The translations under genes and the position numbers were made by a program. A DNA stretch of 7,259 bases from a virus (lineage: Duplodnaviria; Heunggongvirae; Uroviricota; Caudoviricetes): the IMG/VR virus record IMGVR_UViG_2684622543_000002. One strand, given 5' to 3'. How positions within the stretch are numbered: the first letter of the stretch is position 1; every line of letters begins with the position of its first letter. Shown in pieces: positions 1,163 through 7,259 of the stretch. Below the pieces are notes generated by a model. That model ran no database searches. It saw nothing but the letters and a program-made list of their open reading frames with translations, and was not told the origin of the DNA.

Positions 1163-1927
1163 ATGGCAAAACCGGACTGGGAGGCCATCGAATCGGCATA
1201 CCGGGCCGGAGTCCTTAGCCTCCGTGATATAGGCGAGAAATACGGCGTTACAGAAGGGGCTATCAGGAAGAGGGCCAAAAAGCTTGGTTGGGCACGCAGT
1301 GGCGGTACGCAGGTTTGCAAAAATGGTACGCAAAAAAGGAAAGTGCGTACCAGCAGAAAGCCTGCCATTACTGGCCTTACACAAAAAAGTACGCAACTAA
1401 AAACAGAATCTACACCGGATACGAAACCGATACGCGGAATGCGTACCGATCCCCCGACTAACCCATTCCAACCCGGTAACCAGCAGGCATTAAAACACGG
1501 TGGTTATGCCCGTCGCCTTCTGCTCAAAGATGAGGTGATAGAGGACGCTAAAGCGTTGACGCTCGAGGACGAATTATTTCGCCTTCGTGCTAACAACCTT
1601 GTCGCTGCAGAGAATATTGGTCGGTGGTTGGTGTCGCTGGAAGATGCTAATGGGGACCAGGAAAGGAAGATGCTGATTGAAAATATCAGCGCCGCCGAGA
1701 AAGCAATGATGCGCAATACAGTTCGTATTGAGTCCATCGTTGGCACGCTTGCGACGGTAGGAAAAATATTTGCTGATACAGCCTACCGCAAGGCCGCCAC
1801 TGATAAGGTGTCTCTGGAGGCTGATCGTCTTCGCCGTGATGCAGGTATTGATGATGGCAATGGAGAGCGTGACCTCAATGACTTCTACTCTGACATCCAA
1901 ACCGACGCTGAATCCGGCTTTACGTAG
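1163..1927 (+). CDS. Terminase small subunit (N-terminal HTH DNA-binding domain)
   Basis: ATG at 1163 with AGGAAG (1150-1155) 7 nt upstream. N-terminus has a helix-turn-helix-like segment (LSLRDIGEKYGVTEGAIRKRAKKLGW), then a basic, probably disordered linker and a C-terminal domain. Sits immediately upstream of, and overlapping, the large terminase gene. Stop TAG at 1925-1927. Confidence 0.75.
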   Translation: MAKPDWEAIESAYRAGVLSLRDIGEKYGVTEGAIRKRAKKLGWARSGGTQVCKNGTQKRKVRTSRKPAITGLTQKSTQLKTESTPDTKPIRGMRTDPPTNPFQPGNQQALKHGGYARRLLLKDEVIEDAKALTLEDELFRLRANNLVAAENIGRWLVSLEDANGDQERKMLIENISAAEKAMMRNTVRIESIVGTLATVGKIFADTAYRKAATDKVSLEADRLRRDAGIDDGNGERDLNDFYSDIQTDAESGFT

Positions 1928-3281
1928 TTTCTGGACTATGCGGGCACGTAACAAAGTGCTTTATGGTGGTCGGTCATCGTCAAAATCATGGGATGCCGCT
2001 GGCATTGCCATATTTCTGTCGAATAAATACACCCTGCGTTTTTGTTGTGCCCGTCAGATCCAGAATAAAATCGAAGAGTCGGTGTATACCCTGCTCAAAA
2101 TTCAGATAGACAGGTTTGGTCTGCGGCACCGTTTCCGTATTCTGAACAACAAAATCATTAACCGGGTTACTGGCTCGGAATTTGTTTTTTATGGATTATG
2201 GCGCAACATCGAAGAAATTAAGTCACTGGAGGGGATCGATGTGTTGTGGCTGGAAGAAGCCCACGCACTGACGGAATACCAGTGGAAAATTCTGGAGCCA
2301 ACGATCCGTAAAGAGGGTTCGGAATGCTGGTTCATATTCAACCCCGGACTTGTTACTGATTTCGTCTGGCGCAACTTCGTTGTTGATCCGCCCGAAGGCA
2401 CTCTCATCCGCAAAATTAACTATGACGAAAATCCGTTTCTGTCTGACACCATGCTTAAGGTTATCGACGCGGCGCGACGCCGTGATCCGGATGGTTTTAA
2501 ACATGTGTATGAGGGCGTTCCGGAGTCTGATGATGATGCGGCAATCATCAAACTGTCTTGGATAGAAGCCGCAGTGGATGCGCACAAAACGTTAAATTTC
2601 GAACCCAGTGGAAGAAAGCGTATTGGCTTTGACGTGGCTGACAGTGGTACAGATAAGTGCGCTAACGTTTACCGTCACGGATCCGTTGTTTTCTGGGCCG
2701 ACGAATGGAAGGCCAAAGAAGATGAATTACTGAAGAGCTGCCAGCGTACTTATCAGGCGGCGCTGGAGCGTGAAGCAGATATTGTTTACGACTCTATCGG
2801 TGTTGGTGCGTCTGCCGGTGCTAAATTCTCTGAAATTAACGCTGACCGGAAGAGCGAGAACGCATACGCGCGACGTGTGAATTACCAGAGGTTTAACGCC
2901 GGTGCTGGTGTGCATGAGCCAGATGACGAGTACAACGGCATCCCCAACAAAGACTTTTTCGCAAATCTTAAGGCTCAGGCATGGTGGCTGGTGGCTGACC
3001 GTTTCAGAAATACGTTTAACGCCATTAACAACGGAGAACAGTATCCTGTGGATGAGCTGATCAGCATAGATTCTCGTTGTCCGTTGCTTGAAAAGCTGAA
3101 ACTGGAACTGACAACACCTCATCGTGATTTCGACCGTAACGGACGTGTGATGGTCGAAAGTAAAAAAGACCTCGCAAAACGCGAGATACCGTCACCAAAC
3201 GTTGCTGATGCATTCATTATGGCCTTCGCGCCAATCGATACATCGCTGGATATCTGGGAACAGCTGGGGAGACAGGCCTGA
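1878..3281 (+). CDS. Terminase large subunit, PBSX/Terminase_3-like (ATPase + nuclease)
   Basis: Long ORF with N-terminal Walker A (LYGGRSSSKSWD), a Walker B-like segment (IDVLWLEEAHAL) and an acidic C-terminal nuclease region (IGFDVADSG...). The ORF is open from 1770, but ATG at 1878 has GGAGAG (1861-1866) 11 nt upstream and gives a typical length of N-terminal lead before the Walker A; ATG 1860 and 1938 are alternatives. Stop TGA at 3279-3281 overlaps the portal ATG. Confidence 0.9.
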   Translation: MTSTLTSKPTLNPALRSFWTMRARNKVLYGGRSSSKSWDAAGIAIFLSNKYTLRFCCARQIQNKIEESVYTLLKIQIDRFGLRHRFRILNNKIINRVTGSEFVFYGLWRNIEEIKSLEGIDVLWLEEAHALTEYQWKILEPTIRKEGSECWFIFNPGLVTDFVWRNFVVDPPEGTLIRKINYDENPFLSDTMLKVIDAARRRDPDGFKHVYEGVPESDDDAAIIKLSWIEAAVDAHKTLNFEPSGRKRIGFDVADSGTDKCANVYRHGSVVFWADEWKAKEDELLKSCQRTYQAALEREADIVYDSIGVGASAGAKFSEINADRKSENAYARRVNYQRFNAGAGVHEPDDEYNGIPNKDFFANLKAQAWWLVADRFRNTFNAINNGEQYPVDELISIDSRCPLLEKLKLELTTPHRDFDRNGRVMVESKKDLAKREIPSPNVADAFIMAFAPIDTSLDIWEQLGRQA

Positions 3282-4786
3282 TGGCACGAAACAAACAAGC
3301 CCTGCGGCGAACTGTGCAGGCCACAGCTGATGGTTATGAGAATTTTATTGCCCGCGTAGGGATGCAGACACCTAACCAGCACTCAGCATCCACCTACCGG
3401 GCTAATTTCACCAGTCGTAACCGCATGCTGGTGGAATGGTCCTATCGTTCATCCTAGATCATCGGCGAAGCAGTCGATGCTATCCCGGATGATATGACCC
3501 GCAAAGGCATTCGCATCACTTCGGAAATTGATGCANNNNNNNNNNNNNNNNNNNNNNNNNNNNNNNNNNNNNNNNNNNNNNNNNNNNNNNNNNNNNNNNN
3601 NNNNNNNNNNNNNNNNNNNNNNNNNNNNNNNNNNNNNNNNNNNNNNNNNNNNNNNNNNNNNNNNNNNNNNNNNNNNNNNNNNNNNNNNNNNNNNNNNNNN
3701 NNNNNNNNNNNNNNNNNNNNNNNNNNNNNNNNNNNNNNNNNNNNNNNNNNNNNNNNNNNNNNNNNNNNNNNNNNNNNNNNNNNNNNNNNNNNNNNNNNNN
3801 NNNNNNNNNNNNNNNNNNNNNNNNNNNNNNNNNNGTTTTACGATGTGGTGACCACAGCAACGGGAATTCCTGCCTGGCGCATTCATCACAGTCGCCTGAT
3901 TCGCTTTGATGGCGTCACGTTGCCATTTCAGCAGAAGATGACCGAGAACGAATGGGGAATGTCGGTTGTAGAGCGTATCTGGGATCGTCTTACCGCGTTC
4001 GACAGCGCTACTGTCGGCGCGGCGCAGCTGGTCTACAAGGCGCATTTGCGTACCTACAGCGTGGAGAAGCTACGCGAGCTTATCGCACTTGGTGGTCCTG
4101 CGTATGAAGCGTTGCTGAAGAATATCGACCTGATTCGACAGTTCCAGAGTAATGAAGGCATGACGCTCATGGACTCGCGGGATAAGTTTGAAACCCATCA
4201 GTACAGCTTCAGTGGTCTGGATGACATCCTTTCGCAGTTTGTAGAACAGATTAGTGGCGCTGTTGGTATCCCACTGGTGCGGTTGTTCGGACAGTCCCCG
4301 AAAGGATTTTCTACCGGTGATGCAGACCTTGCCAACTATTACGATCGCATCAGTTCGTTGCAGGAGAGGCGTTTACGTCTTCCGGTGCGGCGGATACTGG
4401 ACATCATGCATCGTTCGGAACTTGGCAAGCCGCTGCCGGACGATTTCACGTTTGAGTTTAACCCGCTCTGGCAAATGTCTGATGTCGATCGCTCAACGGT
4501 GGCGTTAAACACCACCAACGCAATCAGTACGGCGCTGGGTGATGGTCTGATGACACTGAAAGCCGCTATGACTGATTTGCGAGAAAATTCTGACGTAACC
4601 GGCATCGGGGCATCCATTACCGACGAGGACATCGAGAATGCCGAAGATGAAGCGCCGCCCGGCATCGGCGAACCTGATGACGAACCGCAGGAGCCGTCAG
4701 GCGGAAATCCGGTATCGAACCAGCCTACGCAGGATAGCGAGGGCGGTCGGAGACATCGTAAATGGTCGCTACGATGGTTCAAATGA
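3281..4786 (+). pseudogene. Portal protein, disrupted: in-frame TAG at 3455-3457 plus an internal assembly gap
   Basis: ATG at 3281 overlaps the terminase stop (TGATG), a typical coupled start. The frame reads MARNKQALRR...NRMLVEWSYRSS-TAG-IIGEAVDAIPDDMTRKGIRITSEIDA, then the N-run, then continues in the same frame (FYDVVTTATGIPAWRIHHSRLIRFDGV... acidic tail) to TGA at 4784-4786. The longest intact ORF is only 3494-4786. Position in the operon (after TerL, before the MuF-like gene) and an acidic C-terminus fit a portal. Confidence 0.7.
3536..3834. other. Assembly gap / masked sequence (299 N) inside the portal gene
   Basis: Uninterrupted run of n from 3536 to 3834. The X-containing ORFs in the track across this region are artefacts. 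Confidence 0.99.
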
Positions 4787-5420
4787 CAGTATCACGGAAA
4801 TTATTGCGGCGCTGGAGCGTTACAGTGAAATCATCACCCCCTGGGCGACAAAGGTCGCGGAAAACTTTACTGCGGACCTAACCCGGCAGAACGAGAAAGT
4901 TTGGCGGCAACACAGCAAGAACATCAGTCGCGAGCTCCGCAATCTTGTGGAAAGCGCTCCTGTGGGCCAGGTGATGCAATCCATCATCGCCGAACAGGTC
5001 AAGTACATCAAATCTCTGCCTCTCGAGGCCGCAGACAGGGTGTACGACATCCAGAACAAAGCGATAGAGGCTGTTGTCACCGGTGGTCGGGCGGAGCAGT
5101 TTGCTAAAGAGATTGCATCTACCGGCGATGTTGCTAAGTCTAGGGCCGATCTGATTGCCCGAACGGAACTGGGAAGAGCAACGGGCGCGCTGGATATGGC
5201 CCGAGCGATAGCTATTGGCTCGGATGGTTATATTTGGCGTACAGCCGATGATGGCGATGTCCGAGATTCCCACGATCACATGAAAGGTAAATTCGTCCGC
5301 TGGGATTCACCTCCAACTTTGGACGGCATGACCGGCCACGCGGGCGAGCTGCCAAACTGCCGCTGCTATAAAGAGATCGTGTTTGTTCGCGTTCCATTCG
5401 CAATGAAAAGGGCAGCATAA
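4638..5420 (+). CDS. Phage head morphogenesis protein, MuF / SPP1 gp7-like minor head protein
   Basis: 260 aa. C-terminal region carries the characteristic MuF-family motif (IARTELGRA...YIWRTADDGDVRDSHDHMKGKFVRWD...ELPNCRCY). ATG at 4638 with GAGGA (4625-4629) upstream; overlaps the portal 3' end by 149 nt in another frame. Stop TAA at 5418-5420. Confidence 0.85.
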   Translation: MPKMKRRPASANLMTNRRSRQAEIRYRTSLRRIARAVGDIVNGRYDGSNDSITEIIAALERYSEIITPWATKVAENFTADLTRQNEKVWRQHSKNISRELRNLVESAPVGQVMQSIIAEQVKYIKSLPLEAADRVYDIQNKAIEAVVTGGRAEQFAKEIASTGDVAKSRADLIARTELGRATGALDMARAIAIGSDGYIWRTADDGDVRDSHDHMKGKFVRWDSPPTLDGMTGHAGELPNCRCYKEIVFVRVPFAMKRAA

Positions 5421-5423
5421 CCC

Positions 5424-6644
5424 ATGAAATACTTTTTTGAGACCAGGCTCGGGGAAACCCGATACCGCCTGGCTGACGGCTCGTTGCTGTGCAAAGACGT
5501 GCCGATAGGACGAACAGGTAAGCAGCTCTATGGTGCTGATGACCTGCCAAAACTGAAACCCGATAAGTTCGGTGAAATAGTCGTCACGCGTTCTCCTGAG
5601 CAGGTATTCCATCCGGCCACGCTTGCCTCATTCGAAGGGATGAGCATCACGATCCTGCATCCTGAAGATGAAAACGGGAATGTGCGGCTGGTAAATCCCG
5701 AGAACTGGAAAGAGCTTGCTGTCGGGCACCTCCAGAATGTCCGGCGCGGGACGGGTGAGCAGTCTGATTTGATGCTGGCTGACCTTATCGTCAAAGACGA
5801 AAGCGCCATTCAGCTTATCGAAGATGGCCTGCGCGAAGTGTCGTGCGGCTATGACGCGGAGTACGAGCAGACCGAGCCAGGTAAAGCCGAGCAGGTCGAT
5901 ATTACCGGAAACCATGTGGCTCTTGTCCCTAAAGGCAGAGCCGGAAATCGTTGTGCAATTGGAGACAGAGACACAATGGCAAATCAAAAGAAAAACTGGT
6001 GGAACCGCATGCGTGCGGCCATCAAGACAGGAGATGCCGACACCATGAACGAACTGGTGGAGTCGGCTCCCGCATCGGTTACAGGAGATGAGGGGGATTT
6101 GCCGCAGGGCGTTAATCTCAACATCAACCTGTCCCCGCAGCAACCACTACCGGACAAAGCACCAGAGATGGGCGGAGATCCAACCGGCGACAGTGATGAT
6201 GACCTCAAAACATTACTGAAAGCCCTGCTGGCTAAGCTGGAAAGAAATGCCACGGGCGATAACGATAATAAGCCTGACGATAATCCGACCGGTGACGGCG
6301 AGGACGATGAAGAGGAAACCACGATTACTGGTGACTCAGCCTGGCGTGCCGAAGTTATCGTTCCGGGTATCGATCTGAGCCGTAAGATGAAACCGACCGC
6401 GTTCAAACGCGAGGTTCTGGCTTCTGCTGACAAAACGCTGGTTCGCCAGATAGTCGGTGATGCGGATATCCGCAAATTACCGAAACAATCGGTCGACATG
6501 GCGTTTAATGCCGTGTCTGAGGTTGCCAAAGGGCGAAACACCCGCGCCACCACCGGCGATGCACAGCGCCTAAACATGGGCATGACCAGTATCGCTTCCC
6601 TGAACAAACAAAACGCTGAATTCTGGGCAAACCGTAAAGGGTAA
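5424..6644 (+). CDS. Putative head scaffolding / prohead assembly protein (DUF2213-like), with acidic low-complexity tract
   Basis: 406 aa ORF starting 3 nt after the MuF stop. Globular N-terminal region (ITILHPEDENGN...GNHVALVPKGRAG) followed by a D/E-rich tract with repeated TGD motifs, which is typical of scaffold proteins. Position between the minor head protein and downstream structural genes supports the call. Family assignment is from memory. Confidence 0.55.
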   Translation: MKYFFETRLGETRYRLADGSLLCKDVPIGRTGKQLYGADDLPKLKPDKFGEIVVTRSPEQVFHPATLASFEGMSITILHPEDENGNVRLVNPENWKELAVGHLQNVRRGTGEQSDLMLADLIVKDESAIQLIEDGLREVSCGYDAEYEQTEPGKAEQVDITGNHVALVPKGRAGNRCAIGDRDTMANQKKNWWNRMRAAIKTGDADTMNELVESAPASVTGDEGDLPQGVNLNINLSPQQPLPDKAPEMGGDPTGDSDDDLKTLLKALLAKLERNATGDNDNKPDDNPTGDGEDDEEETTITGDSAWRAEVIVPGIDLSRKMKPTAFKREVLASADKTLVRQIVGDADIRKLPKQSVDMAFNAVSEVAKGRNTRATTGDAQRLNMGMTSIASLNKQNAEFWANRKG

Positions 6645-6647
6645 AAA

Positions 6648-7154
6648 ATGAATAATGTATTTCTGTACCGGATGCCTGTTGGCATTGCCGGGGCTGTCTC
6701 TCGCCCGCAGGACTTAACCGTCGAACCGGTGGTCCTTAAATCCGATAACGCCTTCGCTGCCTATGGCCTGGCTGGTAAATACGATGATGACGGTTTTTTC
6801 GTGCCGCTGGCAGATGGTGATACCGCAGACAAGGTGAAGGGGATCTACGTGCGCCCTTATCCGACCACGTCGCAGCCGGACATGGTTCGCCAGGTGGGAA
6901 CAGGCAAGAACTTCCCGGGCGACGCCATGAAGCGTGGCTACGTGACCGTTAATCTCGGTTCTGATTTTGATGCCAGCACTATCAAAAAAGGCGATCCGGT
7001 ATACGTTGTCGTCTCCACTGATGAATCCATCAAAGTGCCGCTGGGTGGATTCATGTCCACGTCAGTCAGTGGCAAAAACGTGGTGCTGACCAACGCTGAA
7101 TTCACAGGTGCCGGTGATGCTGACGGCAATGCAGAAATTTCCTGGAAGATTTAA
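6648..7154 (+). CDS. Small phage structural protein (possible head decoration/cement protein, DUF2190-like)
   Basis: 168 aa ORF beginning 3 nt after the upstream stop, with AAGGG upstream. Gly/Val/Thr-rich and probably beta-rich. Too small for a major capsid protein; in this kind of head module it sits between the scaffold-like gene and the major capsid gene. Function inferred from position only. Confidence 0.45.
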   Translation: MNNVFLYRMPVGIAGAVSRPQDLTVEPVVLKSDNAFAAYGLAGKYDDDGFFVPLADGDTADKVKGIYVRPYPTTSQPDMVRQVGTGKNFPGDAMKRGYVTVNLGSDFDASTIKKGDPVYVVVSTDESIKVPLGGFMSTSVSGKNVVLTNAEFTGAGDADGNAEISWKI

Positions 7155-7169
7155 GGAACAGACGAATGA

Positions 7170-7192
7170 GGTGATGCTGCCAACTTACTGAT
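7170..7192 (+). repeat. IS1 left terminal inverted repeat (IRL)
   Basis: GGTGATGCTGCCAACTTACTGAT at the element boundary; the partner repeat is outside the window. Confidence 0.85.
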
Positions 7193-7224
7193 TTAGTGTA
7201 TGATGGTGTTTTTGAGGTGCTCCA

Positions 7225-7259
7225 GTGGCTTCTGTTTCTATCAGCTGTCCCTCCTGTTC
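7225..7259 (+). CDS. insA: IS1 InsA (transposition regulator), 5' end only; GTG start
   Basis: GTG at 7225 followed by GCT TCT GTT TCT ATC AGC TGT CCC TCC TGT TC = (M)ASVSISCPSC, the known InsA N-terminus. Truncated by the window edge. Confidence 0.8.
   Translation, partial: MASVSISCPSC

Follow-up and report, generated by a model that had tools for sequence, protein, structure and literature searches.

The portal locus and its neighbours

The window, by which we mean the whole 7,259-nucleotide stretch of DNA that was analysed, carries a large terminase gene followed directly by a portal gene that is broken by an in-frame TAG codon, then a series of intact head genes and, at its 3' end, the beginning of an insertion sequence. 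The features are given below, each with its coordinates, its strand where it has one and the basis for the assignment.

1878..3281, + strand: large terminase gene, intact, 467 aa, directly upstream of the portal (PF04466, E=4e-38; PBSX-family terminase large subunit in relatives)
3281..3457, + strand: N-terminal fragment of the portal pseudogene, 58 codons and an amber codon (a separate 58-aa ORF for gene callers in S. sonnei assemblies)
3453..3457, no strand: former Dcm site, CCTGG changed to CCTAG (ancestral context tcatcctGgatc)
3455..3457, + strand: amber codon, Trp59 (TGG) changed to TAG by G>A at 3456 (comparison with relatives, metagenomes, isolated phages and the Pam3 portal)
3458..4786, + strand: rest of the portal pseudogene, in the same frame and ending at TGA 4784-4786 (fragments match PF06381)
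3536..3834, no strand: run of 299 N standing in place of 260 real bases (masks the site of Gln126 CAG>TAG)
4241..4243, + strand: Ala308Val (GCA>GTA), lineage-private like the two portal ambers (comparison with relatives)
4677-5420, + strand: Mu F-like head morphogenesis gene, intact (Pfam match and annotation of relatives)
5424-6644, + strand: DUF2213 gene, intact (Pfam match and annotation of relatives)
6648-7154, + strand: head cement protein gene, intact (Pfam match and annotation of relatives)
7166..7169, + strand: remnant of the major capsid gene (DUF2184), the 4 nt ATGA (the match to relatives ends there)
7170..7259, + strand: left end of an IS1 that is 768 bp long in S. sonnei 53G (the next genes belong to the InsA and IS1 DDE transposase Pfam families)

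The portal start codon (ATG, 3281-3283) shares one base with the terminase stop codon (TGA, 3279-3281), and the position of the gene, directly 3' of the large terminase and within the head-gene block, is shared with the relatives. That this is a portal gene, as the earlier note had proposed, is borne out by the intact allele, which matches PF06381 (Phage_portal_3, formerly DUF1073) with E=3e-106 and 355 bits, the Pfam cut-off (gathering score) being 33.8; the fragments found in S. sonnei match the same family. In a sequence search of the PDB, the intact allele also matched the solved dodecameric portals of Pam3 (8hds, E=2e-37) and E217 (gp19, 8fvh, E=1e-14). The window copy belongs to the same family as these portals and occupies the same place between a large terminase and a Mu F-like gene, but unlike them it cannot encode the protein, its frame being divided into pieces of 58, 54 and 360 codons. 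It has no uninterrupted full-length portal frame, with TAG at codon 59 in the window and at codon 126 in the copies identical to it. Judged by its sequence, the locus is a pseudogene of portal family PF06381.

The stop codon is one base away from a conserved tryptophan codon

The frame that opens at the coupled ATG at 3281 meets TAG 3455-3457 after 58 sense codons, just as the earlier note had read it. Past the TAG the same frame continues as IIGEAVDAIPDDMTRKGIRITSEIDA up to the run of N, beyond which it resumes in phase (FYDVVTT...) and ends at TGA 4784-4786. The ORF listing of the window accordingly gives one ORF of 58 aa (3281..3457) and another of 430 aa (3494..4786). Between 3281 and 3535 the sole difference between the window and the relatives L001-L003 is at position 3456, which is G in the relatives and A in the window and which turns TGG (Trp59) into TAG. 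The 58 residues encoded by 3281..3457 are the same as the first 58 of the intact portal WP_000113499.1, and a single base change is all that distinguishes the visible part of the window's gene from the intact allele. Since the TAG lies one base from a conserved Trp codon in a gene that is otherwise 99.8% identical, its origin by chance is not at issue.

The single G-to-A change in a Trp codon (SYRSSW) that had been suggested from the window agrees with every intact homologue, and the residue at the TAG position in related portals, which the earlier note had proposed to look up, is Trp59, encoded by TGG in the intact relatives. Trp59 is also invariant, together with Gln126, in the portals of four isolated phages (Escherichia phage vB_EcoM-606R2, Salmonella phage SEN34, Hafnia phage yong1 and Klebsiella phage Mulock), and it aligns with a Trp of the Pam3 portal (YRSSWIIGEAV against YRNSWVARKAV in 8hds). 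All four isolated-phage portals start at the equivalent Met and have the N-terminal segment in common. The homologues thus begin at the equivalent of 3281 with the same N-terminal segment, and not at the equivalent of 3494, the start that would have made the TAG a natural gene boundary.

A probable second amber codon beneath the run of N

The run of N is 299 long, and the stretch that it replaces has 260 bases in every relative. We therefore rejected the idea that it is a mask of true length. Since 299 and 260 both leave a remainder of 2 on division by 3, the frame nevertheless seems continuous across it. Within the masked stretch, at bases 121-123 of the 260 real ones, a second in-frame amber codon (Gln126, CAG>TAG) is present in all 14 loci that carry TAG at codon 59. 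As the bases under the N cannot be read, the second amber is assigned to the window copy from these 14 loci, whose flanks are identical to it. The true ORF from Met72 has 54 codons, the longest real fragment is one of 360 aa starting at Met129, and gene callers divide the S. sonnei portal into 58, 54 and 360 codons. This means that the 430-aa ORF from 3494, which the earlier note had taken as the longest intact one, does not exist as such; it is an artefact of translating N as X, and the second TAG interrupts it in all 14 of the TAG59 copies.

Distribution of the amber allele

Among 5,426 complete E. coli genomes, a megablast search with positions 3100-3535 detected the region in 375. The three best-matching genomes (FDAARGOS_943, FDAARGOS_944 and VL40) have the uninterrupted 488-aa portal WP_000113499.1 and depart from the window over 3281-3535 only at base 3456. 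In IMG/VR, a 48-mer containing the TAG was found in four contigs from different genome projects and its TGG version in 44; on either side of the run of N, the contigs with TAG agree with the window at every base (100% identity). The 48-mer with the TAG had no match among representatives chosen as one genome per species, probably because GTDB places Shigella within E. coli. In all, 14 TAG59 loci were examined. The change was polarised with 45-49 relatives of 94-100% identity: TGG is present in 49 non-sonnei relatives and in 11 metagenome contigs, TAG in the 14 loci. The 11 metagenome contigs span both amber sites, and every one of them has the ancestral G and C.

In an index of public assemblies the 58-aa product itself has entries in 2,737 blocks, and the ten places shown for it include the complete chromosome HE616528.1, which is that of Shigella sonnei 53G, a lineage II strain (PMC5447701). 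Two of the 14 TAG loci are established as S. sonnei, namely 53G (L056), by its accession, and L052, by the submitter's name (Shigella sonnei Moseley); the remaining 12 were placed in the lineage by their shared haplotype. TAG59, TAG126 and Ala308Val are fully linked, and in IMG/VR they are confined to the same four contigs. No intermediate haplotype, with one amber alone, was found in IMG/VR or, with a degenerate gapped pattern, in the metagenomes. From the distribution of the allele, the source of the window is S. sonnei or something indistinguishable from it here.

The earlier note had also raised a sequencing or assembly error near the gap, in which case the true base at 3456 would be G and the gene intact. 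The TAG does lie only 79 bases 5' of the run of N, and one wrong base would suffice to create it. The same TAG is, however, present in four IMG/VR contigs and ten NCBI assemblies, the complete S. sonnei 53G chromosome among them, the 58-aa fragment recurs through the 2,737 indexed blocks, and the TAG is always linked with two more private changes. Since the allele occurs in many independent assemblies, including a complete chromosome, we regard such an error as excluded for practical purposes. The TAG is a real, derived mutation that is present in many assemblies.

State of the prophage element

The amber codons are not the only inactivating lesions in this element. The match to intact relatives ends at base 8031 of the relative L002, in which the capsid gene starts at 8028, so the window retains 4 nt of that gene. 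The adjoining bases, window positions 7170-7259, have matches at thousands of sites across E. coli genomes. The IS1 of S. sonnei 53G is directly followed by sequence that maps to a DNA invertase remnant adjoining pgl in FDAARGOS_944. Relative to the FDAARGOS_944 prophage, which lies between ybhA and pgl, the junctions of the IS1 mark a deletion of 19,075 bp. The genes in this gap are those for the major capsid, neck, sheath, tube, tape measure, baseplate and tail fibre, as well as the effector gene ipaHb. Upstream, the holin gene is broken by an IS3-family element, and in several strains the early region has been replaced by further IS elements. The other inactivating lesions of the element are thus the second amber, the IS1-linked deletion and the IS elements of the holin region. 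With the genes for capsid, neck, tail, baseplate and fibre gone and with IS elements in the lysis region, this locus could not give rise to a phage, however the amber codons are read.

The portal itself is intact in 40 of the 41 full-length non-sonnei copies. In FDAARGOS_943, the terminase carries an IS2 and the Mu F gene an internal stop, and the portal is intact.

Possible suppression or recoding of the amber codons

The third possibility raised in the earlier note was a phage kept in an amber-suppressor host, in which a supE- or supF-type tRNA would read both ambers so that a working portal is made. Both premature stops are indeed TAG, and their source codons, TGG and CAG, are the classic ones for suppressible ambers. 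The element resembles in this respect the laboratory amber mutants of lambda, T4 and P22 grown on supE or supF hosts, which likewise have a TAG in an essential head gene that arose by transition from TGG or CAG. Those mutants are, however, otherwise complete phages on suppressor strains, whereas the window element, which comes from natural isolates, is a truncated remnant that lacks capsid and tail genes and shows no sign of a suppressor. An amber in an essential gene is present, but an otherwise complete phage genome is not, and with the 19-kb deletion and the IS elements in the lysis region a restored portal would be useless.

The choice of stop codon also carries little weight, since among the 156 sites of the block at which a G:C>A:T change can create a stop, 89 yield TAG, and two TAGs among two such nonsense changes would be expected about one time in three. 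Furthermore, ARAGORN found no suppressor tRNA near the gene in the three 20-kb loci scanned; two of these contained one tRNA with a CAT anticodon and the third contained none. The alleles of the relatives are free of stops, so the stops do not constitute a conserved recoding signal. We consider dependence on a suppressor highly improbable, and suppression could not yield a phage from an element without capsid and tail genes. Programmed readthrough or recoding was considered separately and was rejected, every homologue outside the S. sonnei haplotype having the sense codon TGG.

Probable origin of the mutation at a Dcm site

The ancestral context of the amber site is tcatCCTGGatc, in which CCAGG on the bottom strand has its second C opposite G3456. 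The change has the two properties of a Dcm hotspot mutation, in that it affects the base pair of the second C of CC(A/T)GG and is a G:C to A:T transition. Deamination of that C, if methylated by Dcm, would give exactly 3456 G>A, and it is most likely that the mutation arose in this way. Dcm sites are known as amber hotspots in lacI, where they are over-represented about tenfold (Coulondre et al. 1978, summarised in PMC12606429). As at those hotspots, the change in the portal gene is a G:C>A:T transition at the second C of CC(A/T)GG that gives an amber codon. The lacI hotspots differ in being CAG>TAG changes with CCAGG on the coding strand, whereas the putative methylated C lies here on the non-coding strand and the change is TGG>TAG. 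Neither the second amber (gggGCAGGc) nor Ala308Val lies in a Dcm site. A strand-coordinated cluster of deaminations was also rejected as the source of all three portal changes; read on the + strand, they comprise one G>A and two C>T, which places them on mixed strands, and they are spread over 748 bases.

Concentration of private changes in the portal gene

In comparison with up to 49 relatives, the S. sonnei haplotype has four private substitutions in 7,130 real bases, all of them G:C>A:T. Three are in the portal, two of these being the ambers, and the fourth is a synonymous change at position 684 in a DedA-like gene. The downstream head genes have no lineage-private substitution. This decay is oddly concentrated in the portal, the head genes being otherwise intact, and we regard it as a mild oddity. 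Under a uniform model the probability of at least three changes in the portal with at least two of them nonsense is 6e-4, and it becomes about 0.02 once one portal nonsense change is taken as given, as it should be since that change is the reason why the window was flagged.

Such clustering could point to selected inactivation, in which the ancestor of S. sonnei gained from losing the portal and nonsense changes built up in this gene in particular, for example where portal expression was harmful or where the loss blocked lethal prophage development. The probabilities above speak for it, but they come from a post hoc test on tiny numbers (four events), and one of the two ambers lies at a mutational hotspot and does not need selection to account for it. 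Once the first stop was in place, a second would have brought nothing more, and no intermediate haplotype was found in IMG/VR or the metagenomes that could show the order of the two events. The relatives moreover decay in other genes, as in FDAARGOS_943 with its IS2 in the terminase and its Mu F stop, and all but one of the 41 non-sonnei full-length copies have an intact portal. Taking these points together, we consider selected inactivation very unlikely, although it is a less strained explanation than suppression. There is a slim chance, and we would put it no higher, that selection to silence the portal explains the clustered changes, the portal being harmful or triggering a host defence that senses it; if that were true, the double amber would be a footprint of conflict between host and prophage and not of neutral decay.

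Interpretation and significance

It is very likely that the TAG represents a fixed Trp59-to-amber change in the portal gene of a defective S. sonnei prophage remnant, and that it is a case of ordinary gene decay. Pseudogenisation had been among the possibilities in the earlier note, and it is the one that accords with a stop that is derived relative to the intact orthologues, that occurs in independent assemblies and that is accompanied by further inactivating lesions. In the sequence of events that we propose, deamination at the Dcm site would have produced 3456 G>A, which was presumably inherited by descent in the S. sonnei lineage thereafter; both this mechanism and the order of events are inferred. 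Translation from the ATG at 3281 would halt after 58 codons, and any product restarted at Met72 would be stopped by the amber at codon 126. Given ambers at both codons, no functional portal is expected to be made. Nor would the portal have any remaining role in an element in which IS1 lies 4 nt into the major capsid gene, 19 kb are deleted and the lysis region is interrupted by IS elements.

Pseudogenisation of this kind is already known. The IS-ridden prophage pseudogenes of Shigella, products of reductive genome evolution, likewise show lineage-fixed premature stops, IS insertions and IS1-bounded deletions, and we see no substantive difference between them and the present locus. It is unusual only in that ambers in a single gene account for two of the four private substitutions.

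The significance of the finding is mostly limited to annotation. The appropriate label for the locus is that of a portal pseudogene within a defective prophage, and not that of a 430-aa or 360-aa "portal protein"; where prophage-prediction tools score the region as phage-like, it should not be taken for a viable phage. Furthermore, runs of N may conceal lesions and need not preserve length, which means that ORFs running across them are not to be trusted. For mutagenesis, a natural TGG>TAG change at CCTGG would neatly illustrate the Dcm deamination hotspot in the field. For S. sonnei itself, the three-site haplotype (A at 3456, TAG at codon 126 and Ala308Val) was found, among everything searched, only in the amber-carrying lineage, which includes 53G and Moseley, and it could act as a lineage marker.

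Substitutions and masked sequence in the portal gene

The substitutions confined to the S. sonnei haplotype are all G:C>A:T changes (4/4). Three of the four lie in the portal gene, and two of the four are its amber codons. Under a uniform model, the joint probability of this concentration in the portal together with the ambers is 6e-4, which becomes approximately 0.02 once ascertainment is allowed for.

Window 684, 3456, 4242, and masked codon 126: private substitutions

The second amber, at codon 126, is located under a run of Ns at window 3536-3834, which spans 299 bases and stands in place of a true sequence of 260 bases in all relatives. Since 299 and 260 both leave a remainder of 2 on division by 3, the reading frame seems unbroken across the run. 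Two S. sonnei assemblies, L059 (JBEAAD010000003.1) and L061 (JBDZZZ010000011.1), carry portal-region indels of one base each, giving lengths of 259 and 261 bases, respectively, versus 260 in the other copies. These single-base indels are probably assembly errors superimposed on a true pseudogene.

RefSeq names a near-identical portal in NZ_CP148474.1 'anti-CBASS protein Acb1 family protein', whereas the others go under DUF1073 or portal. The naming of this family is inconsistent, a point to bear in mind when its annotations are read.

Neighbouring genes

456-968, - strand: DedA/VTT-domain membrane protein gene (170 aa, PF09335)
1163-1927: ORF in the small-terminase position (254 aa), 'hypothetical protein' in the annotation of relatives
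4677-4786: overlap of the portal and Mu F-like genes

The DedA/VTT gene has the lysis cassette on one side and the terminase genes on the other, and is encoded on the opposite strand to them. It is intact, its sole private change being synonymous, and it looks like a moron. The 254-aa ORF found no match in a Pfam search, and it shares 50 bases with the beginning of the large terminase gene. The Mu F-like gene has its annotated start within the portal frame, 110 bases in from the 3' end of that frame, and this long overlap of reading frames is also present in the intact relatives.

IS1-linked deletion and the intact relative

NZ_CP065613.1 4285000-4331000: nearest intact relative (L064, FDAARGOS_944), prophage of about 43 kb
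Window 7166-7259; L056 (S. sonnei 53G) 13851-14618; L064 24983-44078: IS1 junction

The FDAARGOS_944 prophage lies between ybhA and pgl and has contractile-tail genes; at the right end is ipaHb, which encodes a T3SS effector. In S. sonnei, an IS1 of 768 bp is inserted 4 nt inside the major capsid gene, and on its far side is a DNA invertase remnant adjoining pgl. With the FDAARGOS_944 prophage as reference, the deletion at IS1 amounts to 19,075 bp and has removed the capsid, tail, baseplate and fibre genes as well as ipaHb.

The same prophage has decayed differently in FDAARGOS_943 (NZ_CP065615.1), where the lesions are an IS2 insertion in the large terminase gene and a stop codon within Mu F, and the portal is intact. 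In the intact relative, a cluster of four tRNAs (Ile, Arg, Thr, Gly; L064 16054-16364) is found upstream of the lysis genes. S. sonnei 53G retains just one tRNA, whose anticodon is CAT, beside an IS element (L056 2704-2777), and the whole late-regulatory region is missing from other S. sonnei strains.

The FDAARGOS_944 genome is labelled E. coli, but since its prophage contains ipaHb the strain is probably Shigella or EIEC. The prophage family is a carrier of ipaH that has been lost from S. sonnei at the ybhA-pgl locus.
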